Shown here: positions 36,627 to 63,999 of the stretch, in pieces | Layout: every line of letters starts with the position of its first letter | Position numbering within the stretch: the first letter of the stretch is position 1 | Origin: Minisyncoccota bacterium | GTDB taxonomy: Bacteria > Patescibacteriota > Minisyncoccia > Phycocordibacterales > UBA9973 | Assembly: GCA_025453495.1 (NCBI GenBank) | Contig: JALOQM010000001.1 | Coordinates: forward strand, 15,664 to 79,663 | Direction: 5' to 3' | DNA: 64,000 nt | Program-made: the position numbers and the translations under genes | Notes under the pieces: model-generated | Databases searched by the model: none | What the model was told of the DNA's origin: nothing | Seen by the model: the letters and a program-made list of their open reading frames with translations, nothing else

Positions 36627-37481
36627 CTATTGTGTAAGTAGATTTGGTTTTTTGGAAAGTAGCATTCCAGTATTTCCATACCAGATGTACCATTTTTTTT
36701 TATTTACTGGCGACTCTTCCCAGACAATACACACGGCGTTGTTGTCACCATGGCATGCACCGCACGCGATCCGTACGACATGTTCATCAACGGCAGTACC
36801 ATACATACGCACCCATACGACTCCTCCATCTGAAGTGAGTTTTGCTAGAAAGAGATCTCTTTGTCCATTGCTTGTACAAAGCGTATTCGTGCCAAGTACT
36901 GCAGTTTGAGAAAATGAACCAGCGACGTATACATGCCCACTATCGTTGCTAGCAAGTGAATAGGCTTCGTCATCTCCAGCCCCGCCTGCAATCACCTTTG
37001 CCCAGAGGTTGTGACCGTTGTCGTCATACTTTGCCACAAAGCCATCATAGCCTCCTTTTGCAGACAATACTGCTTTTGGAAATGGACATGCTAGCTCAAA
37101 GGTCCCAGCGACGACTACATTGCCGTAGTGATCAACAACTATGTCATAGCCAATTTCACTATTTGCAGTACCAGAGATAGCACACCAGATGCGAGCACCA
37201 TAGTGAGTAAACTTTGCGAGATAAAAATCCATCTCGCCTTTTGCCGACACGAGTGTGTCACCAAAGCGCGCTATACCACGAAATCCGCCGACGACAAAGA
37301 CATTGCCTTTTTCGTCATAGAGCTTCCGCATGATGTAGATTTGGTTGTTGCCGTTATCTACATACACTGACGTGACGTCATTTTTTGTAATTGCCAGTGT
37401 AGCTGGTGCTTCCGTATTTGCATTTGCAAAAACAGAAGTACCAAACAATACAGCAATACATACGTTTTTTGTTTTGTTCAT
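36627..37481 (-). CDS. Secreted beta-propeller (SBBP-repeat) protein
   Basis: Signal peptide (start set at the second Met, MNKTKNV...FANA). Repeated G..D.G..YV.G.F motifs typical of SBBP/beta-propeller repeats; paralogous to the proteins at 61025 and 62788. Confidence 0.5.
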   Translation of the reverse strand: MNKTKNVCIAVLFGTSVFANANTEAPATLAITKNDVTSVYVDNGNNQIYIMRKLYDEKGNVFVVGGFRGIARFGDTLVSAKGEMDFYLAKFTHYGARIWCAISGTANSEIGYDIVVDHYGNVVVAGTFELACPFPKAVLSAKGGYDGFVAKYDDNGHNLWAKVIAGGAGDDEAYSLASNDSGHVYVAGSFSQTAVLGTNTLCTSNGQRDLFLAKLTSDGGVVWVRMYGTAVDEHVVRIACGACHGDNNAVCIVWEESPVNKKKWYIWYGNTGMLLSKKPNLLTQ

Positions 37482-37854
37482 TTTTTCTGTTTTTGTGGAA
37501 CATTTCAGAATAGAAATTACCATATTAAGTTATTTATGTCAATGTTTTATGGTAATGAGTAACTAAGTCTTTTGTTTGTATAAACAAAAAAGTACCTCAG
37601 GCATTGCTGCCAGAGATACAAAGGGTAAAAGGTACAAAAGCAAAGGCCCTATTTGGTCAGTTGCGGAACCACCACGCGATGGCGGTGAGCCCAGCCACTT
37701 TGTGGCCGGAAGTCTCATTGAACGGTTGGTTGCTCATTTTGCTTAAGGATTTTAATGTGCTTTGTCGGTTTTTTAGCGCTCTGTCCGACCAGAGATGTAA
37801 TATACTATTACTGAGTAAAATAATATAATATTATTTATAAAAGTCAAATTTACA

Positions 37855-37885
37855 CACAAAAGCCCCTTGAGGGGCTTTTGTGAGA
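37855..37885 (-). terminator. Rho-independent terminator immediately after rplE
   Basis: aagccccttgaggggctt hairpin with flanking T/A runs, directly 3' of the rplE stop. Confidence 0.5.
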
Positions 37886-37889
37886 GAAG

Positions 37890-38429
37890 TTATTTCTTAA
37901 ACGGCACACCGATGAGTTCAAAAAATGCTGTCGCTTCTTGTTTAGTCTTCGCTGTTGTTACAAGTGTGATCGAGAGACCGAAGACATCTTTGATTTCCTC
38001 ATCAACTGTCTCTGGGAAAATAGTATGTTCTTTGATAGAGAGAGTCATGTTGCCGATATCATCAACTGCTGTGCGATTGAGTCCGCGGAAGTCCTTTGTG
38101 CGAGGAAGTGACACAGCAAAGAGTTTGTCGAGAAATCCGTACATGCGAGCACCACGAAGCGTCACCATGACACCGATTGCATCACCTTGGCGGAGCTTGA
38201 AACTCGCGATTGATTTCTTTGCACCACGAAGTGCTGGCTTCTGGCCAGTAATCTTCGCAATACGGTCAGCAATGAGGTCATTTCTATTTTTGTCTTTTTT
38301 AATACCTGAACCAGTACCGACATTGACGACTGCTTTGAGGAGTCGAGGGGCAGCCATTTTGTTTGTATACCCAAACTGCGCCTTGAGGGTCTCGAATGCT
38401 TTCTGTTCTTTTTGTTTTACGCTTTGCAT
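37890..38429 (-). CDS. rplE: 50S ribosomal protein L5
   Basis: Full-length L5 homology. Confidence 0.9.
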   Translation of the reverse strand: MQSVKQKEQKAFETLKAQFGYTNKMAAPRLLKAVVNVGTGSGIKKDKNRNDLIADRIAKITGQKPALRGAKKSIASFKLRQGDAIGVMVTLRGARMYGFLDKLFAVSLPRTKDFRGLNRTAVDDIGNMTLSIKEHTIFPETVDEEIKDVFGLSITLVTTAKTKQEATAFFELIGVPFKK

Positions 38430-38450
38430 ATGAGTTCTGTTATTGAAACG

Positions 38451-38756
38451 TTAGATTTCCTGTTCGCTCTTACGGCTAATACGGATCTTTTTACCTGCGA
38501 CTATCTTTGTCCCAGCGCGAGTCTGTACACCTTTCTTCGGATCGATGAGCATGAGATTTGAAGCTTGGATTGGCATAGCAGTATCAACCATTTTGCCCTT
38601 TGCATCCTGGCGGCGCGCACGTTCATGCTTCTTGACCATATTGACTCCCTCGACAAGTACTTTACCTGTTGCTCTAAAGACCTTAAGCACCTTTGCTTTT
38701 TTGCCCTTGTCTTTACCAGTTACCACTATGACATTGTCTCCTTTTTTTATCTGCAT
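38451..38756 (-). CDS. rplX: 50S ribosomal protein L24
   Basis: KOW motif (MQIKKGDNVIVVTGKDKGKKAKV). Confidence 0.9.
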   Translation of the reverse strand: MQIKKGDNVIVVTGKDKGKKAKVLKVFRATGKVLVEGVNMVKKHERARRQDAKGKMVDTAMPIQASNLMLIDPKKGVQTRAGTKIVAGKKIRISRKSEQEI

Positions 38757-38767
38757 GGGATTGTTGT

Positions 38768-39139
38768 TTAGAGTACCTCAGGTGCGAGGGAAATAATCTT
38801 CTGATAACCAAGTTCACCGATTTCACGAGGAATCGGACCGAAGATGCGACCTGCCTTCGGCTCAGATTTGCCTTTCTCAAGGATGACGACTGCATTATCA
38901 TCAAAACGCACATACGAGCCATCCTTACGACGAAAAGCATTTCTTGTACGGACGACAAGTGCATGATGCACATCTTTTTTCTTAATCGCCTTGCGTGGTT
39001 CTGCGATTTTGACAGAAATCACTACGACATCACCAATTTGTGCATAGCGCTTCTTTGAACTACCAAGAATCTTGAAGACCTTTCCGACTTTTCCGCCGGC
39101 ATTGTCTGTTATCTTTACAACTGTTTCTGTCTGTATCAT
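38768..39139 (-). CDS. rplN: 50S ribosomal protein L14
   Basis: L14 homology (MIQTETVVKITDNAGGK...). Confidence 0.9.
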   Translation of the reverse strand: MIQTETVVKITDNAGGKVGKVFKILGSSKKRYAQIGDVVVISVKIAEPRKAIKKKDVHHALVVRTRNAFRRKDGSYVRFDDNAVVILEKGKSEPKAGRIFGPIPREIGELGYQKIISLAPEVL

Positions 39140-39141
39140 GG

Positions 39142-39393
39142 CTATTTCGTTACTACGATAAACGACTTATCTTTTGACATCGGACGGCACTCCTCGATGA
39201 TCACTTTGTCACCGACCTTGCAGGTATTGTCTGCATCATGCGCCTTATACTTCTTGCTGCGCTTGATGTATTTTTTGTACTTTGGGTGCTTAATGAAGCG
39301 AGTGACTGATACCACAGCTGTCTTGTCCATCTTGTCACTTGTAACGACACCCGAGAGTGTTTTTCTATTCTTTTTTTGTTCGGTGTTTTTCAT
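39142..39393 (-). CDS. rpsQ: 30S ribosomal protein S17
   Basis: S17 homology. Confidence 0.9.
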
Positions 39394-39396
39394 AGG

Positions 39397-39585
39397 CTAT
39401 TTGTTTTTTGATGAAAGCACAGTCAGTATGCGGGCAATTTCTTTCTTAAGAAGTGATCCCTGTTTGACATTCTTGCTCTTTGCACCAGAAGCAGCAAAAC
39501 GAAATGCGCGAAGCGCGTCACGCTTCTCAGTAAGCGCCTTCACTAATTCAGTATCCTTCATGTCTTTAAAATTCAATTTCTTCAT
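39397..39585 (-). CDS. rpmC: 50S ribosomal protein L29
   Basis: L29 homology. Confidence 0.85.
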   Translation of the reverse strand: MKKLNFKDMKDTELVKALTEKRDALRAFRFAASGAKSKNVKQGSLLKKEIARILTVLSSKNK

Positions 39586-39596
39586 TGTAGTGTCAA

Positions 39597-40019
39597 TTAT
39601 TGTGCTTCTTCACGAGAAAGGACTTTTGTCTTTACAGGAAGCTTAGTACCGGCTTTGCGGAGTGCTTCACGTGCTATCGCTTCATCGACGCCATCCACTT
39701 CAAAAATAATACGACCTGGACGAACTTCAAAGCAGTAGCCGTCAAGATCACCTTTACCTGAACCCATGGGTACTTCTGCTGGCTTTGAAGTAAATGGACG
39801 ATCTGGAAAAATACGGATCCATACCTTACCAGCCTTCGTCAACTTACGTGTCATTGCTTTACGAGCCGACTCTATCTGGTTTGATTTCACACGAGCGCCA
39901 GTAATTGCACGAATACCGAAAGAGCCAAACGAAATTTTAGTACCGCGTGTTTCAGGGACGAGCTTTGCCTTTCGCTGAACCTGCCATTTTCTGTGTTTTA
40001 CTTTCTTTGGAAGTAACAT
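39597..40019 (-). CDS. rplP: 50S ribosomal protein L16
   Basis: L16 homology. Confidence 0.9.
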   Translation of the reverse strand: MLLPKKVKHRKWQVQRKAKLVPETRGTKISFGSFGIRAITGARVKSNQIESARKAMTRKLTKAGKVWIRIFPDRPFTSKPAEVPMGSGKGDLDGYCFEVRPGRIIFEVDGVDEAIAREALRKAGTKLPVKTKVLSREEAQ

Positions 40020-40033
40020 AAAATATACAAAAA

Positions 40034-40714
40034 TTATTTCTTGGTGTACTCTCGCTTATCTTTATCAAACACCTCACCACGATAAATCCATACCTTGATG
40101 CCGATGTCGCCATACGGAAGATGTGCTTTCTCTCGAGCAAAATCAATATCAGCACGGAAGGTCTGAAGTGGGATTGAGCCACGCTTTATTTCTTCAGTGC
40201 GTGCGATTTCAGCACCACCAAGACGACCTGAGAGTACAAAACGTACACCACGTACTTCGCGTGCACTCATGACCTTTTCTGCCATTTGTTTCATGATGCG
40301 ACGGAATGTCATACGCTTTTCAAGTCCTTCAGCAATCGCGTAGGCGACGATATGCGCATCGGCGTCTGGAGACTGTACCTCGACAATATCTATCTTGAAG
40401 TCTTCAGGCATCTTGATACCACGCTTTGTCATCATCTTAACAAGACCAGCACGAAGCTTTGTTGCCCCTTCACCATTTCTACCGATGATCATGCCAGGAC
40501 GTGAAGTCTTAATGATAAGACGAGTTGCCTTCTGGCCTCTTTCGATCTCGATCGAAGAAACATATGATCCACGAAGTGTCTTTCCAAGAAATGAACGGAT
40601 AGTGACATCAGCGCGAAGATAGTCTTTGAATTTTTTTGGGTCAGAAAACCAACGAGATTTCCAGTCTCTGAGGATAACAAGTCTATGTGCGTATGGGTGG
40701 ACTATTTTTGACAT
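40034..40714 (-). CDS. rpsC: 30S ribosomal protein S3
   Basis: KH domain and S3 C-terminal domain. Confidence 0.9.
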   Translation of the reverse strand: MSKIVHPYAHRLVILRDWKSRWFSDPKKFKDYLRADVTIRSFLGKTLRGSYVSSIEIERGQKATRLIIKTSRPGMIIGRNGEGATKLRAGLVKMMTKRGIKMPEDFKIDIVEVQSPDADAHIVAYAIAEGLEKRMTFRRIMKQMAEKVMSAREVRGVRFVLSGRLGGAEIARTEEIKRGSIPLQTFRADIDFAREKAHLPYGDIGIKVWIYRGEVFDKDKREYTKK

Positions 40715-40722
40715 AAAAAAAA

Positions 40723-41127
40723 TTATTTTTCGGATGTAGGTTCCTCTAGTTTTTTCGACACTTTTTTAGAAGCTGAAACAGAGCGAGACTTCTCTTTCGG
40801 TGCTCGCTCTTCAAGTTCTATCAAGACATGACTCGCACGTTTGTTGATCCGTGTCGCCATACCATGTGAACGTGGCTGGCTGCGCTTCATTGTGACACCT
40901 TTGTCAACTCGCACATCTTTGACATACAATAATTCTTCTTTTACAGAAAAATTCTGCTTTGCATTCGCAATTGCTGACGCAAGTAGTTTTCTGATAGGTT
41001 CAGCTGCGCGCTTTGCCAAAAACGAAAGTTCAGCATCAGCGGAACTTGTCTGCTTTCCCTTGATAAGTCCGGCTACAAGTCGGACTTTTCTTGGTGATTG
41101 TCTATAGTTTGCGAGTACTGCTTTCAT
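40723..41127 (-). CDS. rplV: 50S ribosomal protein L22 (with Lys-rich C-terminal extension)
   Basis: L22 homology. Confidence 0.9.
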   Translation of the reverse strand: MKAVLANYRQSPRKVRLVAGLIKGKQTSSADAELSFLAKRAAEPIRKLLASAIANAKQNFSVKEELLYVKDVRVDKGVTMKRSQPRSHGMATRINKRASHVLIELEERAPKEKSRSVSASKKVSKKLEEPTSEK

Positions 41128-41146
41128 GAAATATCAATTAATTGAG

Positions 41147-41494
41147 CTATTTTTTCTTTGAATCACTAGCAGAAGACTTTGCTGCCTGTGCTGCTGCTAT
41201 TTCTGCTTCTTTCTTTTTCTGCTCAAGCTCTTTCTGCATCTTACCGCCATGTTTTGTAAACTTACGAGTAAGTGAGAATTCACCGAGTCTGTGGCCAACC
41301 ATATCTTCTGTAACAAGGACATCAAGGTGCGTCTTGCCATTGTGCACACCAAAGGTAAAACCTACCATTTCTGGAGAAATCTGCGATGCACGTGCCCATG
41401 TCTTAATAACCCCTGTTTCAAGAGGCTTCTTGCCAGCTATCTTCTTGAGAAGACGCTCGTCAACATATGGTCCTTTTTTAAGTGATCGAGTCAT
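41147..41494 (-). CDS. rpsS: 30S ribosomal protein S19 (with C-terminal extension)
   Basis: S19 homology ([11 protein letters not shown]...). Confidence 0.9.
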
Positions 41495-41526
41495 ATAAAA
41501 ACAAATAGCTCCGATGAGCTCCCGGT

Positions 41527-41555
41527 ATACTATACAAAAAGCCTAGTAATGTCAA
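41527..41555 (-). promoter_or_regulatory. Candidate internal sigma70-like promoter upstream of rpsS
   Basis: Minus-strand TTGACA, 17 nt, TAGTAT, ~30-60 nt upstream of the rpsS ATG and downstream of a hairpin that follows the inserted membrane-protein gene. Confidence 0.35.
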
Positions 41556-41691
41556 ACCCTATACTAGATTTTGACGGAGCATCCAAGCCATCACCTTTCC
41601 TATAGCCAGAACAATTACTACAAAAAACAGACAATAAAAAAAGAAATCACCTGCAGTAGAGCGGTGATTCTTAAAATACAGTTATTCACAA

Positions 41692-42207
41692 TTATTTCTT
41701 AGGGAGAATTCCTAGTCGTTTATACATACCTTTTCTATACAATTCATAAGCCACAGCAGCAATAATTCCCCATATAACAAATATCTTAATATGACCTAAA
41801 AATACAACTGTATCAGTAATATGTGCGAAATAGTAAAGATTGATCGCATACACTACTCCCCAAAATAAAACAAAGTACACAACTGAAAAAAGGAGTTGCT
41901 TAAATGTAAGTTGTATCCTTTCTTCTTTTTTAAAGAAAAGGGCTTTTGTCGGCGCATAGAGTGGGGCAAGACAGAAATCAAAAACAAAAGAGAATACTCG
42001 TGATCTCCACCATTCAGAGATACTCAATGCTGGCTCTGTGATCCATAATTCACGAATAGTACCAGCAACGAAACCAAGACCAGCAAAAAGGATAATATCC
42101 CAAAGTATCAATCGATATTGTCTACCGGTAAGTTCAAAGGGGTGCAAGCAAATACGTGCTCCCCAATGTCTGAGGTAGTACTTTACAGTAGTCACGAAAG
42201 CTTCCAT
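41692..42207 (-). CDS. Hypothetical polytopic membrane protein inserted between rpsS and rplB
   Basis: 171 aa with four or more TM helices and no ribosomal homology. It splits a normally contiguous gene pair. Confidence 0.45.
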   Translation of the reverse strand: MEAFVTTVKYYLRHWGARICLHPFELTGRQYRLILWDIILFAGLGFVAGTIRELWITEPALSISEWWRSRVFSFVFDFCLAPLYAPTKALFFKKEERIQLTFKQLLFSVVYFVLFWGVVYAINLYYFAHITDTVVFLGHIKIFVIWGIIAAVAYELYRKGMYKRLGILPKK

Positions 42208-42311
42208 ATGTATAGGTTTTTGTGGATGAGATAGAACAGTAGTTGACTAGTTTGTATGCTAGCACTTCTAACAAAAAAGCCAAGTTTTCACTTGGCTTTT
42301 TTGCATACTTA

Positions 42312-43160: not shown

Positions 43161-43190
43161 AAAATGATTACTTGTACTGAGTATGACACA

Positions 43191-43484: not shown

Positions 43485-43493
43485 GGCAGTGAT

Positions 43494-49263: not shown

Positions 49264-50151
49264 CTAAGCAATTGCTGGAACAAATGTAAGTGCTCTAACA
49301 CACCCATCGATAACGCGAGAGAATCGCTCATCTGCATCTGATACCATAGAAAGATTATTCTGGTGAGTAATCTTCTTTGCTGCTTTTCCAATCAGGTTGG
49401 TTATGAGGGTAAGTCCAAGCACTTTTGCACCAAACTGTCGTACTGCAATAACTTCAGGAATCATTGACATTCCGATAACATCTGCTTGTGGTGAGTATTT
49501 GCGCTCAATTTCAGCATCTGTCTCAAGTTCAGGTCCAGGAACAGCTGTATATACGACAGTGTTTGCAAAAAGACGACCTATTTGTTCTTGAGATTTTTTG
49601 ATCCACTCTCGGTCATAGCAGTTTTGCATAGAGACAAAGCGATCAAGTTTAAACTCATCACCATCATTCTTTTTTAATACGGTAGGAAACCCACGAAGTG
49701 GACTATCACCGAGATTATTGACATGATCGTATATGAAAGCGATGTCACCCACTTCATATTCTTCTCCCATTGAACCAGAAGCATTTGTAAAAATGAAATT
49801 GTTTACCCCGCAGACACATAATGTACGTACCGGCAGTACAATTGCATGCATAGTAACACCTTCAAAATAATGAAGCCTACCCTGCACAACACAGACAAGG
49901 GCACCCGAGAGATAGCCAACGTGGACCATACCACTGTGACCTTCTACAGTTGGCTCTGTAAAACCAAGCACGGAAAAAGAAATTTGTTTGCTTTTTTGAA
50001 GCATAGCAATAATGTTTTCCGAACCATTTGTACCGGTACAAATTGCTACTTTCGGAGTCTCAAATCCATTTCTTAGAAGAAAATTTGCAAATCGATTCGC
50101 CGAAGCGTTAATCTGGCGACTGAGTTCTTGTTGTGTTACAGGATGTGTCAT
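49264..50151 (-). CDS. Purine nucleoside / methylthioadenosine phosphorylase family protein (PNP_UDP_1)
   Basis: GTNGSENI and MSMIPEVIAVRQFGAKVLGLTLITN are characteristic of the PunA/MTAP family. Confidence 0.75.
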   Translation of the reverse strand: MTHPVTQQELSRQINASANRFANFLLRNGFETPKVAICTGTNGSENIIAMLQKSKQISFSVLGFTEPTVEGHSGMVHVGYLSGALVCVVQGRLHYFEGVTMHAIVLPVRTLCVCGVNNFIFTNASGSMGEEYEVGDIAFIYDHVNNLGDSPLRGFPTVLKKNDGDEFKLDRFVSMQNCYDREWIKKSQEQIGRLFANTVVYTAVPGPELETDAEIERKYSPQADVIGMSMIPEVIAVRQFGAKVLGLTLITNLIGKAAKKITHQNNLSMVSDADERFSRVIDGCVRALTFVPAIA

Positions 50152-50275: not shown

Positions 50276-50980
50276 TTACGCCAAGCTGCGTGAGAGTACT
50301 ACTTCTGCATACTGGTCGGGTTGCAGTACCTCACTTGGATTGTCCCATGAGGGATTTTTGCCGATTGTCTGCTCGGTAAATTTGTCACGCACACCATTTG
50401 TATTGACGAGCGGTGGTTTCTCAATGACGATATCCATAAACGTACCAAGCTTCTTGAGCAGAAGACCAAACTCTGTGACGCGAATCATGGATTGTACATA
50501 CCCTTCTTCGTTCACGCGTCGCGGATCGTCATCCTTGAAATCTGCCGCCTGCGAAGCAATAAACGTCACAAGCATCTGCGCACAGTGTATTCCATACAAA
50601 TCAAGCAGTGCGTCAATGACGGTTTCTTTGGTGAGATAATTGTCAAGATTGAGCGCCACGATCGCGCTTTGCCGCTTTTGCTCGGGCGTCTCGCCGGGAA
50701 ATGTATGATCCCAGGCAAACCTGCCTGCCACCAGGTATACGTGATTAAACACAATGCCAGCGTTGTGCCATTTTCTGATACTCTCATACACGCTTTCACT
50801 GTCCGTGAGTACACATTGCGAAAAAACAATATTCGGGTGTTCTGCAAACATACTATGCGCCCTTGCGATATCACCACGCACCAGTGCGTAAATTGTGTAG
50901 CCTTTGGCAAGTAGTGCACGAGCGATAGCTCCACCAATTCCGCCAGTTGCGCCTGTTATAAGTGCTGTTTTTGTTTTCAT
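50276..50980 (-). CDS. Short-chain dehydrogenase/reductase-like NAD(P)-binding protein
   Basis: N-terminal TGATGGIGGAIARAL Rossmann motif. Confidence 0.6.
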   Translation of the reverse strand: MKTKTALITGATGGIGGAIARALLAKGYTIYALVRGDIARAHSMFAEHPNIVFSQCVLTDSESVYESIRKWHNAGIVFNHVYLVAGRFAWDHTFPGETPEQKRQSAIVALNLDNYLTKETVIDALLDLYGIHCAQMLVTFIASQAADFKDDDPRRVNEEGYVQSMIRVTEFGLLLKKLGTFMDIVIEKPPLVNTNGVRDKFTEQTIGKNPSWDNPSEVLQPDQYAEVVLSRSLA

Positions 50981-51984: not shown

Positions 51985-52152
51985 ATGTTTGCAAGGAGCA
52001 CTTTACTATGCCCTGCCTAAAAATGCAAGGGTTTCTGAGAAAATTGATAAAAATGAGCTTCTCTTATATAGTGAGAAGGTTCGGGTCAGTTGCATCCCTA
52101 AACCAAAAGCAGTACTTTTAGTCGGGCGAATAAATTTGAAAATTGTTTTAGC

Positions 52153-52228
52153 CACCCTTAGCTCAGTTGGTAGAGCAGTCGTCTTATACACGACCGGTCC
52201 ATGGTTCGAGTCCATGAGGGTGGACCAG
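52153..52228 (+). tRNA. tRNA with anticodon UAU (Ile2-type by anticodon; identity not otherwise established); C1:G72, CCA encoded
   Basis: Canonical 76-nt numbering: acceptor CCACCCT/AGGGTGG, T8, A14, G18G19, anticodon stem GTCGT/ACGAC with loop CTTATAC, T-arm CCATGG-TTCGAGT, A73-CCA. The D-arm is identical to tRNA-Lys-type sequences. Confidence 0.75.
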
Positions 52229-52764: not shown

Positions 52765-54666
52765 TTACTTTTCTTCTTTCTTCTTTGGCATGATGCCATT
52801 TGCGATGATAATCTTTTCGTAATCGTCTTGTTCGAGTGTCTCTTTCTCGACAAGCGCGAGCGCAATCGCATCAAGCGCTCCGCGATATTTTGTCACGACA
52901 TCACGCGCGCGAGCGAATCCATCTTGCATGATCTTTGATACTTCAGCATCAATTTTTGCAGAGACCGCTTCAGAATATTCTTTGCCATCAATACCAGCGC
53001 CAAAGAGTGCACGGCCGCCCTCGCCTTCAAGTGCGACAGGACCAATCGTTTCTGACATACCCCAACGCGTCACCATTGAGCGTGCAAGTGATGTCGCTAC
53101 CTGGAGATCATTTGATGGACCGGTCGTGACATCACCAAAGAGCATTTCTTCTACGACATAGCCACCAAGTGATACTGCGATATCATCGAGAAATTCTTTT
53201 TTTGATTGCAATTTACGTTCTTCAATCGGAAGCTTGAGTGTATAGCCAAGTGCACGACCGCGAGAGATGATGGTGATTTTGTGTACTGGATCAGCGTATG
53301 GCAGTACTGATGCGACAAGCGCATGCCCTGCTTCATGATACGCAGTAATTTCTTTTTCTTTTTTTGAAAGAAGGTAGCTTTTGCGCTCAGGACCAAGTAG
53401 TACTTTTTCGATTGCACGAATGAGATCAAACTGTGACACTTTTTTGCGGTCCTCACGTGCAGCAAGGATTGCACCTTCATTCATAAGCGAATGAAGGTCC
53501 GCACCAGAGAAACCAGGAGTGCGCTCAGCGATTACTTTAAGATTTACATCCTCAGCAAATGGCTTCTTGCGAGAATGAATTTTCAAAATTTCTTCACGGT
53601 CTTCACGGTCTGGCAGATCAAGCACGACGCGTCGGTCAAAGCGACCGGGACGAAGAAGCGCAGGATCAAGTACATCCGGACGATTTGTTGCAGCCATAAC
53701 GATCACTTTTTCATTTGGCTCAAAGCCGTCCATTTCTACAAGTATTTGATTGAGTGTCTGCTCTCGTTCATCATTGCCACCACCAATACCAGTGCCACGT
53801 ACGCGTCCGACTGCGTCGATTTCATCTACAAAGATAATCGCAGGCGCGGCTTTTTTGGCAACTTTGAAAAGATCACGCACACGAGAAGCACCCACACCGA
53901 CAAACATTTCGACAAACTCAGAGCCAGATAAATGGAAAAAAGGGACTCCCGCTTCACCCGCCACTGCTCGTGCAAGAAGTGTCTTTCCGGTACCTGGGGC
54001 ACCAGTGAGAATGACGCCTTTAGGAATACGTGCGCCAATATCGAGAAACTTTTTTGGATTGCGGAGGAAATCGACAATTTCTTTGAGTTCTTCTTTTGCT
54101 TCTTTTGCACCAGCCACATCTTTGAAAAGAACGCGTTGATTTTTGTCGTCAGGAGATGTGACACGCGCTTGTGTCTGTCCAAACGAAAGTGCTTGCATAC
54201 CCGCACCTTTTACTTGGCGTGAAATCATCCAAAAGAAAAAGAGTATAAAGAGCACTGGTAATGCAAATGGGAGAATATTTGCAACCCAAAACATGAAACC
54301 ACTCTGATTTTTGACACTAATTGTCACTGCAGCTAACTTCTCTTTTGAGAGACCATAATTGGCAAGTGTTTCGGTAAGTGCTGCTTCACTTTCTTTGAGT
54401 GCAGTCTCCTTAGTGTCATCAGAGCGTATAATAGAAAGCTTATTACCAGAAACCTCAATACTTTTGATTGCTCCAGCATCAATACTCTGCGCAAGATTTG
54501 AGAGAGACACCTCAACAGGTGTATCTTCTTTGCCCGAGAGAAGTGAATATGCCACCGTCAGGAGCAATAAGACAAAAATGGTGCCAAAAATGTTTTTTGA
54601 AAAGTCGAATTTCGGATTCTTTTCTTTTCCTTTTTTTTGTTGATTGTTCTGTGTAAATAGTTTCAT
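52765..54666 (-). CDS. ftsH: ATP-dependent zinc metalloprotease FtsH
   Basis: AAA+ Walker [22 protein letters not shown] region and HEAGHA zinc motif; N-terminal TM anchor. Confidence 0.95.
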
Positions 54667-55206: not shown

Positions 55207-55209
55207 CAT

Positions 55210-56350: not shown

Positions 56351-56382
56351 CGCCACGGGTTCAAATTAGCACTGTATAAAAT

Positions 56383-56416: not shown

Positions 56417-56420
56417 AACT

Positions 56421-57884
56421 CTATTTACATGATAACTCGTTTATCTTTTTCAGCGTCATTTCTCCGACGAATCCAGTCGAAGTAGTAAGCCCGATCGGCG
56501 CAAGGATGTCTGAAGCGTATTTCCGCTGGAAATCTATAACTGCTTGAAGGGTGAATTCACCAAAGAATGTTGTGACTTCAGGATAGGTAAAGAAATTTTG
56601 CGCCTTGAGAAATGTTTGCAGTGTTCTCACTGATTCCTTGCGATCACCGAAACGGAGCATCTCAGTAAGGTATGGAGTACAAACACCAGAGACTTTCGGC
56701 AAAGTGCCATCAAATGATGCTGGCCGTTCAGAAATATTGGGATTAAATCCTCCCCCAGCAGCGCCAGCACTACCTGTACTACTACTTGCTGTAGGAACAG
56801 TAATTGTAAATGCTGTCACAGGAAGAGTGTTGGAAGCATTGCCCGCACGATCACTGACAACAATGGTACAGTTTGTATATGCACCACCTGTAAGTGCTGA
56901 AAAGGTAATAGTATTTACTCCAGACGTTGCACTTGTAGTGATAGAGGAACATGCGCCGCCATAGGCGATAGTACCAGCCTCATTAGTTGTAAAGGTATAT
57001 GCTGGAGTGGTGTTAGTTGTCGGTGTCATCACAGGAGTGACTTCAGAAATAGTCGGAACTGTTTTGTCGAAGGTAACTGTTGATGTATCAGAAACAGTAG
57101 TAATAGTCGAAGAAGCGTTCCCCGCAAGATCAACTACTTCAAACTCAAAACCAACCAGTCCTTCGACATCAGAACTGTCAGTAATATAGCTAAATTTCCA
57201 AGTATTTCCAGAGACAAATTCTATTAGCGCGCCATCATTAAATACAGGATTTGAACCTGAAGAATAAAATGTATACGAAGCAGACGGATCAATATCTTCA
57301 CTTGCATTAAATGTGACAGTCACGATATCACCAACCTTTGCATATATAGGATTCGTCCCACTTCCTGCTATGGAAACATCCGATATAGTAGGACTCTGAC
57401 TGTCTTCTATTTCTATCGAGTCTCCATTTGAGATAACAACATTTGTATTAGAAAGAGTATCTATAATACCTGACGCGTCAATGTATAATCCACGTGAAGC
57501 ATCATATGCTGTATCAGTTGCCGCAAATGGGGTACCAGCAAAAGTAAGTCTGAAACGTGCTGCGTTACTAAAAGCTGCCTGGATGATACTGGCACTTGTC
57601 GGTGTGAGTGGTGAAATGCCACCAGTATTTACATCAATGTGAAATTTGCTCGGGTCAACGGTGACTATATTTTGACCAGGAACACCGCTTACTATCACCT
57701 CTAATTGATTTGGAGAGACTATCCTTGCTTTTATTACAGTAATATTTGCTACAGCAGATGCTGTATTGGCAAAAAAACCAAAAGATAAAATAAATAGTCC
57801 TACAAAAAGAAAACTGCTAATAAAAAGTTTTATTTTTCTCATATATTGAAGAATAACAAAAAAAATGCCTAACTCAAAAATCAA
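56421..57884 (-). CDS. Secreted repeat protein with C-terminal peptidoglycan-binding (PGBD1-like) domain
   Basis: Signal peptide at the second Met (MRKIKLFISSFLFVGLFILSFGFFANTASA). Thr/Ser-rich beta-repeat body. The C-terminal LQTFLKAQNFFTYPEVTTFFGEFTLQAVIDFQRKY matches the PG_binding_1 pattern. Confidence 0.5.
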   Translation of the reverse strand: MIFELGIFFVILQYMRKIKLFISSFLFVGLFILSFGFFANTASAVANITVIKARIVSPNQLEVIVSGVPGQNIVTVDPSKFHIDVNTGGISPLTPTSASIIQAAFSNAARFRLTFAGTPFAATDTAYDASRGLYIDASGIIDTLSNTNVVISNGDSIEIEDSQSPTISDVSIAGSGTNPIYAKVGDIVTVTFNASEDIDPSASYTFYSSGSNPVFNDGALIEFVSGNTWKFSYITDSSDVEGLVGFEFEVVDLAGNASSTITTVSDTSTVTFDKTVPTISEVTPVMTPTTNTTPAYTFTTNEAGTIAYGGACSSITTSATSGVNTITFSALTGGAYTNCTIVVSDRAGNASNTLPVTAFTITVPTASSSTGSAGAAGGGFNPNISERPASFDGTLPKVSGVCTPYLTEMLRFGDRKESVRTLQTFLKAQNFFTYPEVTTFFGEFTLQAVIDFQRKYASDILAPIGLTTSTGFVGEMTLKKINELSCK

Positions 57885-57920
57885 ATAAAAAGTCTCATAT
57901 CCATGGTTTAAGTACGCTCA

Positions 57921-59048
57921 CTACCGGCACAGTGCGTCAATACCAGGAAGAGATCCATCAGAAAGAAAATCTATCGTCGCACCGCCACCTGTCGAGACAA
58001 ATGACAATCTATTTTCAATCTTGAGCTTCTCAACAAGTGCCACTGTATCACCGCCACCGACAATTGTTCGTGCGCGACTTTGAGCAAGCATGCTCAATAT
58101 ATCTTCTGTTGCCACCCCGAAACCTTCTTCATAATTACCCATTGGACCATTCCAAAGCACCATCTTTGCACGAGCAATAAAAAGTTCGATAAGCGTGACT
58201 GACATCGGACCAATGTCAACAATGGTGTCTTGCTTTGTTACTTCTTCTGGAAGTTTTACTCTATGAGTGCGACCTGTTTTTACGATGACATCAACCGGGA
58301 GAAAGAGATTGTCAGCTCGCGTGAGTTTTTTCAAGCCAAATAGTTTTGTATCAACAAGAGAGCGACCAACTTCATATCCAGTTTCTTTAAAAAAGTTGTT
58401 TGCAAGTGCACCACCGACAAAAACAAAATCTGCTTTCTTTAGAAATTTCTTGATCAATGGAATCTTTGTTTCAAATTTTGCACCACCAAGCAAAAAGAGA
58501 AATGGTTGTTTTGGTGCGTGCATAACACGTGAGAGCTCGGTGATTTCACGAAGTAATTGGAATCCAGCATATGACGGAAGCAGCTTTGCTACACCCACCA
58601 CAGATGCATGCGCACGATGGCAGACTGGAAATGCATCATTGACATAGATATCGGCAAGCGAAGCAAGTGCACGAGAAAATGTGAGATCATTTTTTGTCTC
58701 ACCTGCATGCTCGCGGAGATTCTCAAGTAGGAGCACCTCACCATTTTTCATCTTGCTACACTGTGCAAGTACTTTTTCACCCACAACCTCTCTCACAAAT
58801 ATATGAGCGATATAGGTCTTTAATTTCTTTGACACAAGCGAAAGACTTTCTCCCTTATCTCCAAGATGACTAATGAGAATTATTTTTGCGCCTTTCTTTT
58901 TTAGATATTCTATTGTGGGTAGTGCTTTTTTGATACGGAAATCATCAAGAATTTTGCCTTTCTTGATCGATACATTGAAATCCACACGGACAAGGATTCT
59001 CTTGCCACGAATGTTTTTGAGCTCGGTAATTTTTTTAAACTGTTTCAT
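57921..59048 (-). CDS. pgk: Phosphoglycerate kinase
   Basis: PGK homology across both domains (RVDFNV..., GGGA). Confidence 0.9.
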   Translation of the reverse strand: MKQFKKITELKNIRGKRILVRVDFNVSIKKGKILDDFRIKKALPTIEYLKKKGAKIILISHLGDKGESLSLVSKKLKTYIAHIFVREVVGEKVLAQCSKMKNGEVLLLENLREHAGETKNDLTFSRALASLADIYVNDAFPVCHRAHASVVGVAKLLPSYAGFQLLREITELSRVMHAPKQPFLFLLGGAKFETKIPLIKKFLKKADFVFVGGALANNFFKETGYEVGRSLVDTKLFGLKKLTRADNLFLPVDVIVKTGRTHRVKLPEEVTKQDTIVDIGPMSVTLIELFIARAKMVLWNGPMGNYEEGFGVATEDILSMLAQSRARTIVGGGDTVALVEKLKIENRLSFVSTGGGATIDFLSDGSLPGIDALCR

Positions 59049-59073
59049 TGGTAAAGCTAATAACTACTACCTC

Positions 59074-59832
59074 TTACGAAAGATGCTCTGCGCTATAGAC
59101 AATCTGGATAAATTTCAACGGAGTGAGACTCTCACGTCCGACAAGTACGCCATCTACACCACCATCAGAGAGAAATGCTTCGGCATTTTTTGTATTTACA
59201 GACCCACCATAAATGAGTGCAACAGTTTTTGTTGCAACAGCACCAAACATATCTGAAAGTACTTTTTTGATGAAAATACTCATCTCAAGTGACTCAGCTG
59301 GCGTCGCCTCTCGTTTTGCATTCTTGCCTATTGCCCAGACTGGCTCATACGCAATTATAACGTTCTTTAAATTTACTTTCTTGAGACCTGCAAGCGATTG
59401 CATAATTTGTTCCTTGATAAAAGTATGATAGTCGCCTTTTTCGTCACGTACGGATTCTCCTATGCAAAGAATTGGTTTCAAACCAGCCTTGAGTGCTGCT
59501 TTAACCTTTTTGTTTACCATTTCATTTGTCTCACCCATCGCGCGGCGCTCGGAGTGTCCAACTATGACATATGTTGCTCCTGATTTTGCAAGCATTGTAC
59601 CCGAATGCTCACCGGTATAGGCTCCACTTTCTTCCCAAAAGAGATTCTGTCCGGCAAGGGTAGTATTTTGTAATTTTGCCAATGATTCAAGATATATAAC
59701 CGGCGGCGCGATGATAACGGACACTTTCTTGAAGTGTGAGACCTTCGTTGTGATTGCGGTAACGATCTTTTTTGCCTCAGTCAACGACTGGGGATTCATT
59801 TTCCAATTTGCGATGATTACTTTCTTAGTCAT
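59074..59832 (-). CDS. tpiA: Triosephosphate isomerase (start set at MTKKVIIANWKMN)
   Basis: ANWKMN, catalytic HSERR and YGGS motifs. Confidence 0.9.
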   Translation of the reverse strand: MTKKVIIANWKMNPQSLTEAKKIVTAITTKVSHFKKVSVIIAPPVIYLESLAKLQNTTLAGQNLFWEESGAYTGEHSGTMLAKSGATYVIVGHSERRAMGETNEMVNKKVKAALKAGLKPILCIGESVRDEKGDYHTFIKEQIMQSLAGLKKVNLKNVIIAYEPVWAIGKNAKREATPAESLEMSIFIKKVLSDMFGAVATKTVALIYGGSVNTKNAEAFLSDGGVDGVLVGRESLTPLKFIQIVYSAEHLS

Positions 59833-60022
59833 GAATGTATTGTATGTCGAAACAGCACGAGACGCTAGAAGCTCTTGGCATATGCCTCTGCAACGGTAAG
59901 ACATATTGCGGCTAAGTGTGTTGGAAGTGTTGTACAAAAAGTACGCGCTTCGTCTAGTCCATGGAAGTATGAAATGAAATCCTTCACCGCCCCATTCACA
60001 CAATTTACCTGCTGTTCTTCAT

Positions 60023-60937
60023 TTATGCCAAGCAAGCATCGTGCTTTTGTAATTTCAGGATCACTTGAATTCTACCAGACGCATCGCGACCAAGACTCTG
60101 ATAGCAAGTTTGCCGATATCCATCACCAACAGTCGAGCAGAGACTAAATACTTTTGCATAATCATTGCCTGTCACTTTGAGCATGTATGAGGTCTGCATG
60201 AGGAAACAATCTGTTTTGTAGGTATCTGGGACCGCATTGCATGGATAGATTGGATCTTTGGGATCAAGATACGTAGTAGCGTGATTGTTGTTGTCGACAA
60301 TGAGATTTTCCATGAAGACACCACCATAACAAGAACGCTTCTCCCATATTCCCTCGAGACGGTCACAGAGCGTAAGTGCGTCAAAAAGTTCATGATTGGT
60401 ATATGCCATAAGTCCATGTCCTAATCCGTGTATACAGTTGAAGTAATCAAAACTATAGCGCTCCTTGCCAGGAATATCAGCACAGATTGTGTTGAGTTGA
60501 TTTGGAACCTCTGCACGCCCCATCTTGGCGATAATACCTTCAAGTGCACCGTGATAATACCCTGACCAACAAAAACTATCACCATACGTATAGGCTTCAG
60601 AGAGCGTCGGATATTTCTCTATAGCCACACGACCGATCACATGCGTGATTGGATGACAGTTCTCTTTAACGTATGTGTTTGTATTGTAGCGAGCACGCAA
60701 ATCAGCAAATGCATCAGCTACACCACGCTCTCGGACAAGTGTAGAGTAATACGCCTCATAGCACTCAAAATCTTCTGAGAGGAATCTTCTGCAAGAAAAA
60801 GCTGAGCCGCCTTCAGTGTAAGAATGCTTAAACACAAATTTCCGAGCTACGTAGGTATAATAAAAAAAGCTTACAATCAACAAAAACAGAGCGCTTATGA
60901 AAAGTACTTTTTGTGTTTTTGATAGCTTCACACACAA
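60023..60937 (-). CDS. Membrane-anchored Cys/aromatic-rich hypothetical protein
   Basis: N-terminal TM helix; many Cys, Tyr and His; no recognisable domain. Confidence 0.3.
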   Translation of the reverse strand: MCVKLSKTQKVLFISALFLLIVSFFYYTYVARKFVFKHSYTEGGSAFSCRRFLSEDFECYEAYYSTLVRERGVADAFADLRARYNTNTYVKENCHPITHVIGRVAIEKYPTLSEAYTYGDSFCWSGYYHGALEGIIAKMGRAEVPNQLNTICADIPGKERYSFDYFNCIHGLGHGLMAYTNHELFDALTLCDRLEGIWEKRSCYGGVFMENLIVDNNNHATTYLDPKDPIYPCNAVPDTYKTDCFLMQTSYMLKVTGNDYAKVFSLCSTVGDGYRQTCYQSLGRDASGRIQVILKLQKHDACLA

Positions 60938-61024
60938 AACTATAACGCGATAAAATACTAATCGATGAGCAAAAATACATACACCCCCTGTCGATAATCA
61001 AACAGGGGGTGTTATAGCATATAC

Positions 61025-62671
61025 TCAATGGATAAAAATTTGTGTTGTACTCAAAGTACCATCTTCACAAACAACAATAAGGCAATACGCTCCAGAAGGT
61101 AGATCTCTACGATCAAGTGTCACAGTACCGTCTACTTGAGAGGTGATATGTCTCACTTCTCTACCATAGATATCGACAAGGGTAAGTGTAGTGAAATTTC
61201 CCAGAAGCTCTATATGGCACTCTGTGAAAAAAGGATTTGGATACACTTGGACGGGCGATACTCTAACATAAGAAGTAACTCCAGAAGATAGTAGTGAACA
61301 TTTTGCTTCATATGCGTCTGTTTGGCCATACGTAGAGACAGTACAAGAACCAAAATACGTGGGCACTGATGAAGAAATACCTCCGACATGATATGTCCCA
61401 TTTGAATCTACAGAAACACCACAAAGCCAATCTTCATCTATCCCACCTGTACTCATTGCAAAATATGGAGCACCGGTAGCATAAGCAAAAGAAGCAATAA
61501 ATCCGTCATACCAACCACTACTTCCGTATAGTTTTTGTCCAAACAAAAATTCTCGCTCAAAACCACCAACAACGATTGGATTTTGTGTATTTTCAAGCGC
61601 TATATCATAGGCTACCGAATTACCTTGCGGCACACTACCAAGAGCCGTTGCCCATAGACAATTACCACTACTATCATACGATGCTACAAAAGCATCTGCT
61701 GTTGATGCTGTAGAAAGTGTATTTGAGCCAAATACTGCAGTTCCAGAAAAATATCCAGCTATAAACATTCTTCCCGAATCAGAAATTACTACGCCACGGG
61801 CGGCATCACCAAAGCTAGTTCCTCCTGCGGCTCGTGCCCACTCGCAATTACCAAGAAGATCATATCGAGCAAGAAATATATCTGTATAGCCGATACTTTG
61901 TATAGTCTCTGTACCGAAACGTGCAGTATCTATCTGTATTGCACCAAAATTGAAATACCCTGTGATTACAATACAGCGATCATACGGATCACATGCAATA
62001 CCGTAGGCAACATCATCATGCACGCTGCCTCCTGATGAGGCAAATAAGAGACTTCCAGACGTATCGTAGCCAGCAATACATACATCACGGCTACCAACTG
62101 AGACAAGAGATAGTGAATCAAGTTGCAGGGTATCATAATACCCTCCTGCAACATAGGCATTGCCAACTGCATCACAAGCAACAGAAAAGAACTGCTCATT
62201 TCCCGCTCCTGTACTCTGTTTTGCCCAAAATATAAATCCAGACGCATCAAGACGTACAAGCAAACTATTTTGCGTTGCTGTATCAACGTTTGTAAGTGGT
62301 ATCATAGCGCCACAAAAAAGTAAGGGTGAATCAAACCATCCTACGACATAGAGCGATCCATCTTCTGCTACCACCACATCACGAATCTCTTCTTCTCCAG
62401 AACCACTAAACACGCGAAGCCATGCTGCGTTTCCGAAAGGATCACGTTTCAAGACAAAAGCATCTTTCTCTCCCATCGAAATCACTTGTCCGAATCCAAA
62501 ATCAACGACACCGGTAAAAAAACCGGCAGTATAGGAATTTCCAAGAGTATCAATCGCAACCGAGAGACACGCATCGCCAGTTGCTCCGCCTGCTGTTTTT
62601 GCCCATTGGCATTGTTGTGCGTGGAGCACGGGTGTGCCATAGAGACAGAGTATTAAAAGAACTTTTTTCAT
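61025..62671 (-). CDS. Secreted SBBP beta-propeller repeat protein with T9SS-type C-terminal sorting domain
   Basis: Signal peptide MKKVLLILCLYGTPVLHAQQ and seven or more SBBP-like repeats. The C-terminal ~80 aa (VYPNPFFTECHIEL...LVDIYGREV...LDRRDLPSGAYCLIVV...TQIFIH) match the Por/T9SS CTD pattern. Confidence 0.55.
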   Translation of the reverse strand: MKKVLLILCLYGTPVLHAQQCQWAKTAGGATGDACLSVAIDTLGNSYTAGFFTGVVDFGFGQVISMGEKDAFVLKRDPFGNAAWLRVFSGSGEEEIRDVVVAEDGSLYVVGWFDSPLLFCGAMIPLTNVDTATQNSLLVRLDASGFIFWAKQSTGAGNEQFFSVACDAVGNAYVAGGYYDTLQLDSLSLVSVGSRDVCIAGYDTSGSLLFASSGGSVHDDVAYGIACDPYDRCIVITGYFNFGAIQIDTARFGTETIQSIGYTDIFLARYDLLGNCEWARAAGGTSFGDAARGVVISDSGRMFIAGYFSGTAVFGSNTLSTASTADAFVASYDSSGNCLWATALGSVPQGNSVAYDIALENTQNPIVVGGFEREFLFGQKLYGSSGWYDGFIASFAYATGAPYFAMSTGGIDEDWLCGVSVDSNGTYHVGGISSSVPTYFGSCTVSTYGQTDAYEAKCSLLSSGVTSYVRVSPVQVYPNPFFTECHIELLGNFTTLTLVDIYGREVRHITSQVDGTVTLDRRDLPSGAYCLIVVCEDGTLSTTQIFIH

Positions 62672-62787
62672 TGCTGTTCAGTTTAAGGTGAATAGTGTGA
62701 ATATGTATCTGAGAAAAAATATAACAAATACATACTCAAGAAAAAATAAAAGAACCCCATCCTGCGTCTGCAGAACGGGGTTCGGGT

Positions 62788-63999
62788 TTACTGAATCATA
62801 ACTTTTTTGCAATATCGAGCTTGGATGCTTGATACAGAAACAAGATATACTCCAGGTGTAAGGTTCTCACAATTGATTTCTGTCGAACCAAAGATTGCAA
62901 TAGACTTCAGTTCGCGACCAAACATGTCAGACATACTGATCTGATACTGAGCATTTTCAGGTAGCGTCACAACGACAGTACCTGAAAACAAATTCTGAGT
63001 AATCAATACATTAAGGGAATTCTCTTCGGGAATTGCAAGTGGCAAAGATACTGTCGCAAGGAAACCGTCAGCAAAAGCGTCGGCATTGGTAAGCGTCGTC
63101 GAACCAAACGTTGTTGATCCACCAGCATAACTGCCAATAATTTTAGCTTCTCCATTCATACCGGCACATATTGCTGTTGGTGATTCATCACCTGCACCAC
63201 CTGTCTGACAGGCAGAAACAACCGTGTTTGACCACGGTGCATACCTTGCTATGAATCCGTCTCTCAGACCAAAAGCAGTGTACGTAGTTTCTCCGATCAA
63301 CTGACTACCAGAAAAGGTGCCAGTCAGATACATATCACCATTTTGTCCCACACTAATACTTCCATCACTAGGTGAAACACCAGAACCGACAACCACAGCT
63401 ACTGCTCCAGTATTCGTACCTGTTATAAGGTTATATGTAGCAACACAATAAGAATACATACCAATATCCTGAATACCATACTGACCAAATACTATATTTC
63501 CTTGGTCAAATACTCCTACAATACTGAGATGGTTTCCTGACACGGCAATGCCTCGCGAGTAATCATACCCAACACTTCCTCCGCTTACAGCCCATACTTC
63601 TGTACCAGTTTGAGAAAACTTGACAATAAAGAAATTTTGTGTTCCTCGATTTACAAGTGATGCTGTAGCACAAACAAGAGAATCTGATTCAAATTGACCT
63701 TGTACGTACCAATTACCACTTGCGTCTACAGTAATACTTGTACCTGCTTCACGTAAGCTACTACCTCTTGCTTGGGCAAACACCACTGTTCCTGCAGTAT
63801 CAATACCGGCAATAAACATATCGCCATTATTTGTGGCATCAGAAAAAAAATAAGGACCGATCTGCAGAGTACTGTAGAATATACCAGTAACACCAAGCAT
63901 ACTGCCATGAGAGGCAATTGAAGTGATTATCTGGTCATTAACAGAACCGTAAGAATTTACCCAAACGACAGAAAGATCACTTGCGTGCACTTTTGCCAC
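62788..63999 (-). CDS. SBBP beta-propeller repeat protein with T9SS-type C-terminal sorting domain (N-terminus beyond the window end)
   Basis: The same repeat family. The C-terminus ISMSDMFGRELKSI...NCENLTPGVYLVSV...KKVMIQ is CTD-like. Confidence 0.5.
   Translation of the reverse strand: MAKVHASDLSVVWVNSYGSVNDQIITSIASHGSMLGVTGIFYSTLQIGPYFFSDATNNGDMFIAGIDTAGTVVFAQARGSSLREAGTSITVDASGNWYVQGQFESDSLVCATASLVNRGTQNFFIVKFSQTGTEVWAVSGGSVGYDYSRGIAVSGNHLSIVGVFDQGNIVFGQYGIQDIGMYSYCVATYNLITGTNTGAVAVVVGSGVSPSDGSISVGQNGDMYLTGTFSGSQLIGETTYTAFGLRDGFIARYAPWSNTVVSACQTGGAGDESPTAICAGMNGEAKIIGSYAGGSTTFGSTTLTNADAFADGFLATVSLPLAIPEENSLNVLITQNLFSGTVVVTLPENAQYQISMSDMFGRELKSIAIFGSTEINCENLTPGVYLVSVSSIQARYCKKVMIQ

Follow-up and report, generated by a model that had tools for sequence, protein, structure and literature searches.

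SBBP beta-propeller proteins with T9SS-type C-terminal domains in a Patescibacteria genome

We analyzed a 64,000-nucleotide stretch of DNA (the window; positions 15,664 to 79,663 of contig JALOQM010000001.1) from a Minisyncoccota bacterium – a member of the Patescibacteria, or candidate phyla radiation (CPR) – with a focus on three genes that we call P1, P2, and P3. All three encode secreted proteins with SBBP-type beta-propeller repeats, and P2 and P3 end in a C-terminal domain (CTD) resembling the type A sorting domains of type IX secretion system (T9SS) cargo. T9SS sorting domains are usually taken as a signature of diderm bacteria of the Bacteroidota and the wider Fibrobacteres–Chlorobi–Bacteroidetes (FCB) group; here they are intact, apparently vertically inherited, and under constraint in a Patescibacteria genome. 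The genes were probably acquired long ago from an FCB donor, inherited vertically, and fast to diverge as Sec-exported surface proteins in which the CTD would have a T9SS-independent role. They are known family members in an unexpected phylum, a case of cross-phylum transfer and domain retention and not a new system.

All three open reading frames (ORFs) lie on the minus strand at the coordinates that an earlier sequence-only reading had assigned to them. The P1 ORF (36627–37523, 298 amino acids) is of SBBP type without a CTD; NCBI starts it at Met15 (36627–37481, 284 amino acids) and lists the identical protein as ‘hypothetical protein MUD00_00285’. This short secreted protein is the copy that had been noticed beside rplJL, and its gene indeed sits between rplE and rplJ–rplL. 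P2 (61025–62671, 548 amino acids) encodes a secreted SBBP propeller followed by a type A CTD. P3, also an SBBP protein with a type A CTD, runs past the window end: the window holds its C-terminal 403 residues (62788–63999), and the full-length gene encodes 543 amino acids on the source contig (8253–9884 of locus L001). P2 is identical to MCU0660075.1, from a 251-kb metagenome-assembled genome (MAG) contig in GenBank, and NCBI names both P2 and P3 ‘T9SS type A sorting domain-containing protein [Candidatus Pacebacteria bacterium]’. The three genes had been called paralogous, which holds in a deep sense only – P1 and P2 are 29% identical over ~190 amino acids, and P2 and P3 are 25% identical over their full length.

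Consistent with the proposal that P2 and P3 end in a T9SS-type CTD, a hidden Markov model (HMM) search placed both above the curated TIGR04183 cutoff of 23 bits (26.6 bits for P2 and 27.1 bits for P3). With PF18962, which has a curated cutoff of 27 bits, the proposal stands for P3 (28.0/27.3 bits) and falls short for P2 (23.8 bits). Neither profile found a CTD in P1. The matches extend to residues 545–548 of 548 in P2 and 402–403 of the 403-residue window fragment of P3, so that the domains occupy 61028–61252 of the minus strand in P2 (residues 474–548; profile match at residues 476–545) and 62791–63015 of the same strand in P3 (approximately the last 75 residues; profile match at residues 340–403 of the fragment). 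Among proteins of the related lineages described below, P0188 (25.7 bits) and P0189 (39.7 bits) pass the TIGR04183 cutoff, and P0002 (20.6 bits) and P0009 (18.5 bits) score below it. A CTD HMM of our own gave the two window proteins 45.5 and 28.2 bits, compared with 41.6–78.9 bits for homologues that were part of its training set.

Structure prediction points to the same domain. An AlphaFold2 model of full-length P2, built on an alignment of 59 sequences (P2 and 58 homologues), reached a predicted local distance difference test score (pLDDT) of 90.6 and comprises an N-terminal helix, a propeller at residues 19–460, a disordered linker at residues 463–470, and seven strands at residues 474–547. 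CTDs are defined by a 3+4 sandwich of seven strands (PMC11285876), and the predicted fold matches it. A model of the P2 CTD alone, for which the alignment consisted mostly of Bacteroidota CTDs and left out the 540-residue orthologue from L083 (see below), also had a pLDDT of 90.6. Its best matches in the PDB include PorZ (5M11), mirolase (8QB1; template modelling (TM) score 0.72, root-mean-square deviation (rmsd) 2.1 Å), RemA, and NucA, with TM scores of 0.68–0.72 against these four CTDs; the RemA and NucA structures are of CTDs trapped in the SprA–PorV translocon (8GL6, 8GLK). The RgpB and PorU CTDs appear lower down the match list, and other small Ig-like sandwiches (DUF3244, CopC) are interspersed among the matches. 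A CTD profile that includes the window sequences recovers the same solved CTDs by sequence, though Bacteroidota sequences dominate this profile.

In the alignment of P2 and its 58 homologues, the consensus after the repeats follows the canonical CTD pattern VYPNP...N..G..V...L..G.Y...K. Translocon structures highlight an almost invariant, functionally important lysine near the C-terminus of type A CTDs (PMC10994853). This lysine is kept in P3-type proteins (KKVMIQ, EKVIKQ, EKMIKQ) and replaced by glutamine, arginine, or asparagine in three P2-type proteins (TTQIFIH, IRLSIQ, INIISQ); a few Bacteroidota homologues likewise have arginine or glutamine at this position. P3 and P0188 have lost the YPNP motif. 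The replaced lysine, the lost YPNP, and TIGR04183 scores near the cutoff are signs that the CTD may be drifting away from a T9SS role. Even so, invariant positions make up 30% of the CTD columns (22 of 73) when the three P2-type lineages are compared, versus 36% in the propeller, and the conserved positions include lineage-specific residues beyond the family-wide motifs (e.g., G-x-EV-x-H and DR-x-x-LP-x-G-x-Y). Conservation of the fold and of many CTD positions implies that the domain does something, and, judged from these alignments, the CTD appears clearly retained under constraint.

The earlier reading also attributed SBBP-like repeats to all three proteins. NF047494 gave partial-length matches in P1, P2, and P3 (E values of 4e-17, 8e-25, and 9e-8; 62, 87, and 31 bits), and most database homologues of the three proteins carry PF06739, in keeping with that attribution. 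PF06739 itself, by contrast, is below its gathering cutoff in P2 (14.9 versus 20.5 bits) and has no match in P1 or P3. The family consensus from the 59-sequence alignment contains seven ~60-residue repeats, and from these repeats and the AlphaFold2 strands, modelled at pLDDT >90, we predict a seven-bladed propeller in P2 (61292–62617, minus strand). P1, at 284 residues, has room for only ~4–5 blades. Membership of the LipL53 family was considered and rejected: NF047494 scores of 31–87 bits compare with an equivalog cutoff of 400 bits, and there is no lipobox.

Signal peptides, read directly from the sequence, are present on all three proteins as had been suggested. That of P2 (residues 1–18; 62618–62671, minus strand) reads MKKVLLILCLYGTPVLHA by eye and is followed by QQ, with predicted cleavage between HA and QQ; a crude signal-peptide scan places the cut at the same site, and in the model a helix at residues 2–11 precedes a low-pLDDT segment in this region. 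The P3 signal peptide ends in ...FIASTITGSA before QN, and that of P1, counted from Met15, is MNKTKNVCIAVLFGTSVFA before NA. Signal peptides with alanine before and glutamine after the cut (A-Q) occur in P2 and P3 and the orthologues of both, in P0189, and in the two short paralogous proteins of the relative described below, and this ending is the Q-rule specific to Bacteroidetes (PMC5837995). In our own survey of +1 residues, 2% of the 149 candidates in other Patescibacteria loci had glutamine, as did three of eight in an FCB-type locus – a hint only, as the survey is crude, cuts early, and picks up transmembrane helices. CPR cells are monoderm-like. The T9SS carries proteins across the outer membrane and has been described as specific to Bacteroidota/FCB (PMC7463736, PMC10994853). 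Sec export alone would thus put these proteins outside the cell.

The host of these genes belongs to the Patescibacteria. FtsH (52765–54666) is 70–74% identical to homologues in Nomurabacteria, Taylorbacteria, Paceibacterota, and other Patescibacteria MAGs, which account for all of its best matches, and only ~50% identical to FtsH of Chloroflexota. NCBI likewise names the organism Candidatus Pacebacteria/Paceibacterota. The content of the window – the str/S10 ribosomal cluster, TIM, PGK, FtsH, SecDF, FtsW, LemA/HtpX, a type I restriction–modification system, tRNA-Ile(UAU), and 23S rRNA – fits a reduced CPR genome. The earlier impression that the rest of the window is of Patescibacteria type is thus borne out, and the FCB-group organism that would have made the CTDs expected is not what FtsH indicates. 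No T9SS family is present among Pfam matches in the window and 10 kb of flank on each side (~84 kb in all); in the flanks are an F-type ATPase operon and genes for ComM, ribosomal protein S15, and large surface proteins. Given the Patescibacteria host and the lack of any T9SS family over this span, the suggestion that the lineage has a T9SS-like export route is not supported.

The locus is reproducible across assemblies. The window matches contig Ga0392395_0000052 (211,366 bp) of JGI metagenome 3300037462, which contains the exact P2 sequence, and gene order is identical on this contig, in the independent Logan assembly SRR12684587, and on the 251-kb NCBI MAG contig. We rejected a chimera or contamination on the basis of the same order in the independent assembly and of orthologues at the same loci in a relative.

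That relative was identified in the Logan assembly SRR31089965. One of its contigs (L083) encodes a Gly_rich_2 protein (80% identical to its counterpart in the window genome), a P3 orthologue (61%), and a P2 orthologue (63%), followed by a polysaccharide cluster. On another (L084), genes from EF-Tu to L24 are followed by L5, two short SBBP genes, L10, and L7/L12; one of the short genes encodes a P1 orthologue at 70% identity and the other a 30%-identical paralogue, and the ribosomal and neighbouring proteins share 84–98% identity with their window counterparts. P2-type and P3-type genes also occur, at 41% identity, in a third and deeper lineage (P0009/L085 and P0189), and on L085 a Bac_transf gene 56% identical to that of L083 comes after the P2-type gene, as it does in L083. 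The relative has a GC content of 50.5%, compared with 41–43% in the window genome, and the SBBP genes track the GC content at third codon positions (GC3) of each genome – 0.25–0.27 here and 0.52–0.55 in the relative. Because synonymous divergence (dS) is saturated, we used only non-synonymous divergence (dN) and the comparison of non-synonymous with synonymous differences (pN with pS). Between the window and the relative, dN is 0.24 in the propellers and 0.43–0.44 in the CTDs, versus 0.01–0.12 in housekeeping genes, and pN in the SBBP genes (0.20–0.33) is below pS (~0.7). Taken together, orthologues at the same loci, GC3 tracking, divergence, and CTD conservation indicate that the SBBP genes are old, fast-evolving residents and that the CTD of P2 and P3 has been kept.

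We also noted several features of these loci. Upstream of P3, just past the window end (L001 5323–8121), lie genes for two secreted proteins of 461 and 453 amino acids; the latter is the Gly_rich_2 protein (PF21722), in which an acidic double-disulfide repeat scores just under its cutoff. The Gly-rich gene, P3, and P2 form a three-gene block that is conserved in the relative. A polysaccharide cluster – Bac_transf, glycosyltransferases, a carbamoyltransferase, and Wzy-like and Wzx-like proteins – stands directly after the P2-type gene in L083 (4229–14148) and L085 (1294–3434); after P2 in the window genome come a 302-residue Cys-rich membrane protein, TIM, and PGK. GC3 overall is ~0.6–0.7 in the relative versus 0.33–0.5 here, a marked change in base composition between genomes whose proteins remain close.

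Terminator-like hairpins stand directly after P1 (36600–36631, 14-bp stem), P2 (60981–61012, 12-bp stem), and P3 (62752–62783, 14-bp stem), all on the minus strand and each with a T run. Because each of the three genes has a strong hairpin of its own behind it, P1 should not be counted simply as a ribosomal-operon gene. A promoter-like site upstream of P1 (37820–37847, minus strand) agrees with the consensus at 10 of 12 positions and is a consensus match only.

The ribosomal cluster next to P1 (37890–51984, minus strand) has an unusual layout that is conserved in the relative (L084 1–11947). It ends after L5, where one or more SBBP genes and rplJ–rplL take the place of S14, S8, and L6. A PNP-family phosphorylase gene (49264–50151) and an SDR-like gene (50276–50980) lie between S7 and EF-G, and a 171-residue ORF (41692–42207) between L2 and S19 has a counterpart at 36% identity in the relative. 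The relative's rplE (L5; L084 8279–8815) is 94% identical to that of the window and is missing from the collection's gene table owing to an overlapping ORF on the minus strand that was called in its place.

To place the family more broadly, we examined the best 120 matches of each search with P2 and P3. Outside the lineage tiers described above (100%, 61–63%, and 41% identity), no homologue of P2 or P3 exceeds 36% identity. Most of those with a name belong to the Bacteroidota (Rufibacter, Emticicia, Fluviicola, Hymenobacter, Flavobacterium, Bacteroidales), others to the Cloacimonadaceae, and some SBBP-only homologues come from other phyla. Most of the best 120 matches of either protein have the combined SBBP and PF18962 build of ~550 amino acids, and our own CTD search found the domain in 89 of the best 120 P2 matches. 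The FCB-type locus of one homologue, P0007 (GCA_964570375.1), encodes three further CTD proteins and also contains a DUF5683 gene; as a control, the CTD HMM recovered all four CTD proteins of that locus. The same HMM and a whole-family HMM had no match in ~1 Mb from ~55 other Patescibacteria ftsH loci. P2 peptide patterns found no relative among GTDB representative genomes, a weak negative given that exact 8-mers were required, and a metagenome scan with three P2-type sequences returned no match from a collection that apparently lacks these samples (P0009's JGI contig was also not returned). In the literature, we found no paper on T9SS or T9SS CTDs in CPR/Patescibacteria. Abundance in Bacteroidota/FCB, rarity in CPR (this lineage and two relatives), and the A-Q ending support the suggestion, raised in the sequence-only reading, that the genes were acquired horizontally. 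A neighbour-joining tree of 140 proteins gave 100% bootstrap to each of the two groups, that of P2 and that of P3.

From the architecture, the fold, the host taxonomy, the orthology and synteny, and the skewed distribution, we infer a direction of transfer, an export route, and a function. An ancestor within the Paceibacteria would have taken up typical FCB/Bacteroidota T9SS cargo genes (signal peptide, seven-bladed SBBP propeller, and type A CTD), which would then have been inherited vertically as separately terminated units at two loci – Gly-rich gene–P3–P2 and rplE–P1–rplJ – with local duplication or loss leaving one or two short copies beside rplJL. The SBBP genes would have diverged several times faster than housekeeping genes. 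In a cell expected from its phylum to have neither outer membrane nor T9SS, Sec and signal peptidase I would place the protein outside. Fast evolution and family context suggest that the propeller is most likely a surface or extracellular binding module in contact with a host or the environment. The CTD would no longer be a T9SS signal, and its folded sandwich may be kept for another role (e.g., stabilization of the propeller, or attachment to a component of a surface or host).

Several points weigh against this account. The direction of transfer would rest on distribution and not on a resolved rooted tree: in the neighbour-joining tree the sisterhood of P2 and P3 has 12% bootstrap, the two groups sit on long branches among FCB sequences, and the donor clade is undefined, so that one acquisition and two are not distinguishable. 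The third lineage (L085, P0189) is placed in CPR only through synteny with L083. Saturation of dS (pS 0.5–0.8) makes dN/dS unreliable. The absence of T9SS genes covers only ~84 kb of the genome, and the absence of an outer membrane is an assumption from general knowledge of CPR. A functionless CTD should also have decayed; its retention argues that a picture without any T9SS role is partly incomplete.

Constraint on the CTD keeps in play the earlier suggestion that the domain is used by another system. It might have been co-opted as a sorting or anchoring signal for a different surface-attachment system (e.g., through glycan linkage), or as a ligand for the PorV/attachment complex of a Bacteroidota host in a form of cargo mimicry. 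Such co-option seems to us unlikely, although several observations are compatible with it: the CTD persists, with its invariant columns and lineage-specific residues, in three lineages whose overall identity falls to 41%, pN is below pS within the CTD, the modelled fold appears intact, and a Bac_transf/Wzx/Wzy-type polysaccharide cluster directly follows the P2-type gene in two of the three lineages. However, the window genome has TIM and PGK in place of that cluster, the propeller evolves more slowly than the CTD between the window genome and its close relative (dN 0.24 versus 0.43–0.44), and the near-invariant lysine (PMC10994853) is glutamine, arginine, or asparagine in the three P2-type proteins; no candidate partner machinery was found. 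More speculative still is the specific idea that, in a CPR episymbiont lacking both T9SS and outer membrane, the CTD's new job could be to dock propellers onto the T9SS surface machinery of a Bacteroidota host, or to act as the signal of a CPR attachment pathway linked to the polysaccharide genes.

It is very improbable that the lineage has its own T9SS-like route and that these proteins are true T9SS cargo. Both CTDs do exceed the curated TIGR04183 cutoff, P3-type CTDs do keep the C-terminal lysine, and inspection of the genome spans only ~84 kb; but the host is a member of the Patescibacteria, this outer-membrane system has been described as specific to Bacteroidota/FCB (PMC7463736, PMC10994853), that span contains no T9SS Pfam family, ~1 Mb of other Patescibacteria loci contains no CTD proteins, and full-text literature searches found no report of T9SS or CTDs in CPR. 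We give equally little credence to recent functionless foreign DNA, a binning or assembly artefact, or newly arrived genes in decay. The GC3 of P2 and P3 (0.25–0.27), somewhat below that of window housekeeping genes (0.33–0.50), and CTD HMM scores near threshold could be read in this way. Against such a reading stand intact ORFs, each with its own terminator-like hairpin, CPR genes on both sides in the 211-kb and 251-kb contigs as well as the independent assembly, orthologues at matching loci in a relative, with whose GC3 they also agree, and pN well below pS.

An old acquisition from an FCB donor, our preferred reading, has several implications. An entry named ‘T9SS type A sorting domain-containing protein’ in a CPR MAG should not be taken to mean that a T9SS is present. 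The flow of genes from Bacteroidota-like donors into the surface-protein repertoires of CPR may hint at the partners of these episymbionts, and fast divergence relative to housekeeping genes makes the propeller proteins candidates for host or phage interaction. The genes also offer a natural experiment on the fate of a secretion-signal domain once its machinery is absent.

The window and its flanks have other features of note. The 23S rRNA gene (28271–32084, minus strand) is 3,814 nt long compared with a 2,925-nt model, implying ~890 nt of insertions; no convincing ORF lies within, and ARAGORN calls a pseudo-tRNA at 30630–30713. A 5S gene (27782–27888, minus strand) follows the 23S gene, and protein genes lie upstream with no 16S gene adjacent. 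The tRNA-Ile gene (52152–52227, plus strand) has the anticodon TAT (UAU), which implies AUA decoding without a TilS-modified CAU tRNA. A type I restriction–modification island (6790–18272) encodes HsdR, a Bro-N protein, a full HsdS (410 amino acids), DUF2130, HsdM, and a half-size HsdS (203 amino acids); it adjoins a large serine recombinase gene (16147–17502) and tRNA-Ser, and could represent either a mobile island or a system for switching specificity. A surface protein of more than 1,562 amino acids, encoded beyond the window start (L087 1–3335), carries Laminin_G_3, SASA, Calx-beta, Flg_new, and PG_binding_1 domains, and a 487-residue protein with PG_binding_1 (56421–57884, minus strand) is a further cell-envelope or surface protein.

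The proteins can be compared with several known systems. The best structural match of the P2 model is CylK, a Friedel-Crafts alkylating enzyme (7FH6/7RON; E value 1.5e-24, 23–24% identity over ~450 aligned columns). CylK differs in being a cyanobacterial biosynthetic enzyme with an extra N-terminal domain; because the catalytic residues lie outside the comparison, the match bears on fold and family alone. Leptospira LipL53-family SBBP lipoproteins (NF047494) have SBBP repeats in common with P1, P2, and P3, as partial matches. Solved type A CTDs (PorZ 5M11, mirolase 8QB1, RgpB 5AG8/5HFS, RemA/NucA 8GL6/8GLK) form a seven-strand Ig-like sandwich at the extreme C-terminus, as in the P2 model, and the P2 CTD compares with them at TM scores of 0.59–0.72 and rmsd values of 2.1–2.5 Å. 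Unlike the solved domains, P2-type CTDs have glutamine, arginine, or asparagine in place of the lysine, P3 and P0188 lack YPNP, and no translocon was detected that could recognize them; the YPNP, D-x-x-G-x-x-V, and G-x-Y fold motifs are common to the solved CTDs and the P2 domain. The closest counterparts are the SBBP/T9SS type A proteins of Bacteroidota/FCB (e.g., Rufibacter sp. LB8 WP_192822371.1 and P0007). These come from T9SS-bearing diderm genomes, where their genes often neighbour those of other CTD proteins, whereas the window proteins are found in a Patescibacteria genome with no T9SS gene over ~84 kb and have CTD scores at or below the low end of the Bacteroidota/FCB family range. 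Their architecture is the same – ~550 amino acids with an A-Q signal peptide, seven blades, and a CTD – and they align with the window proteins end to end at 27–36% identity.

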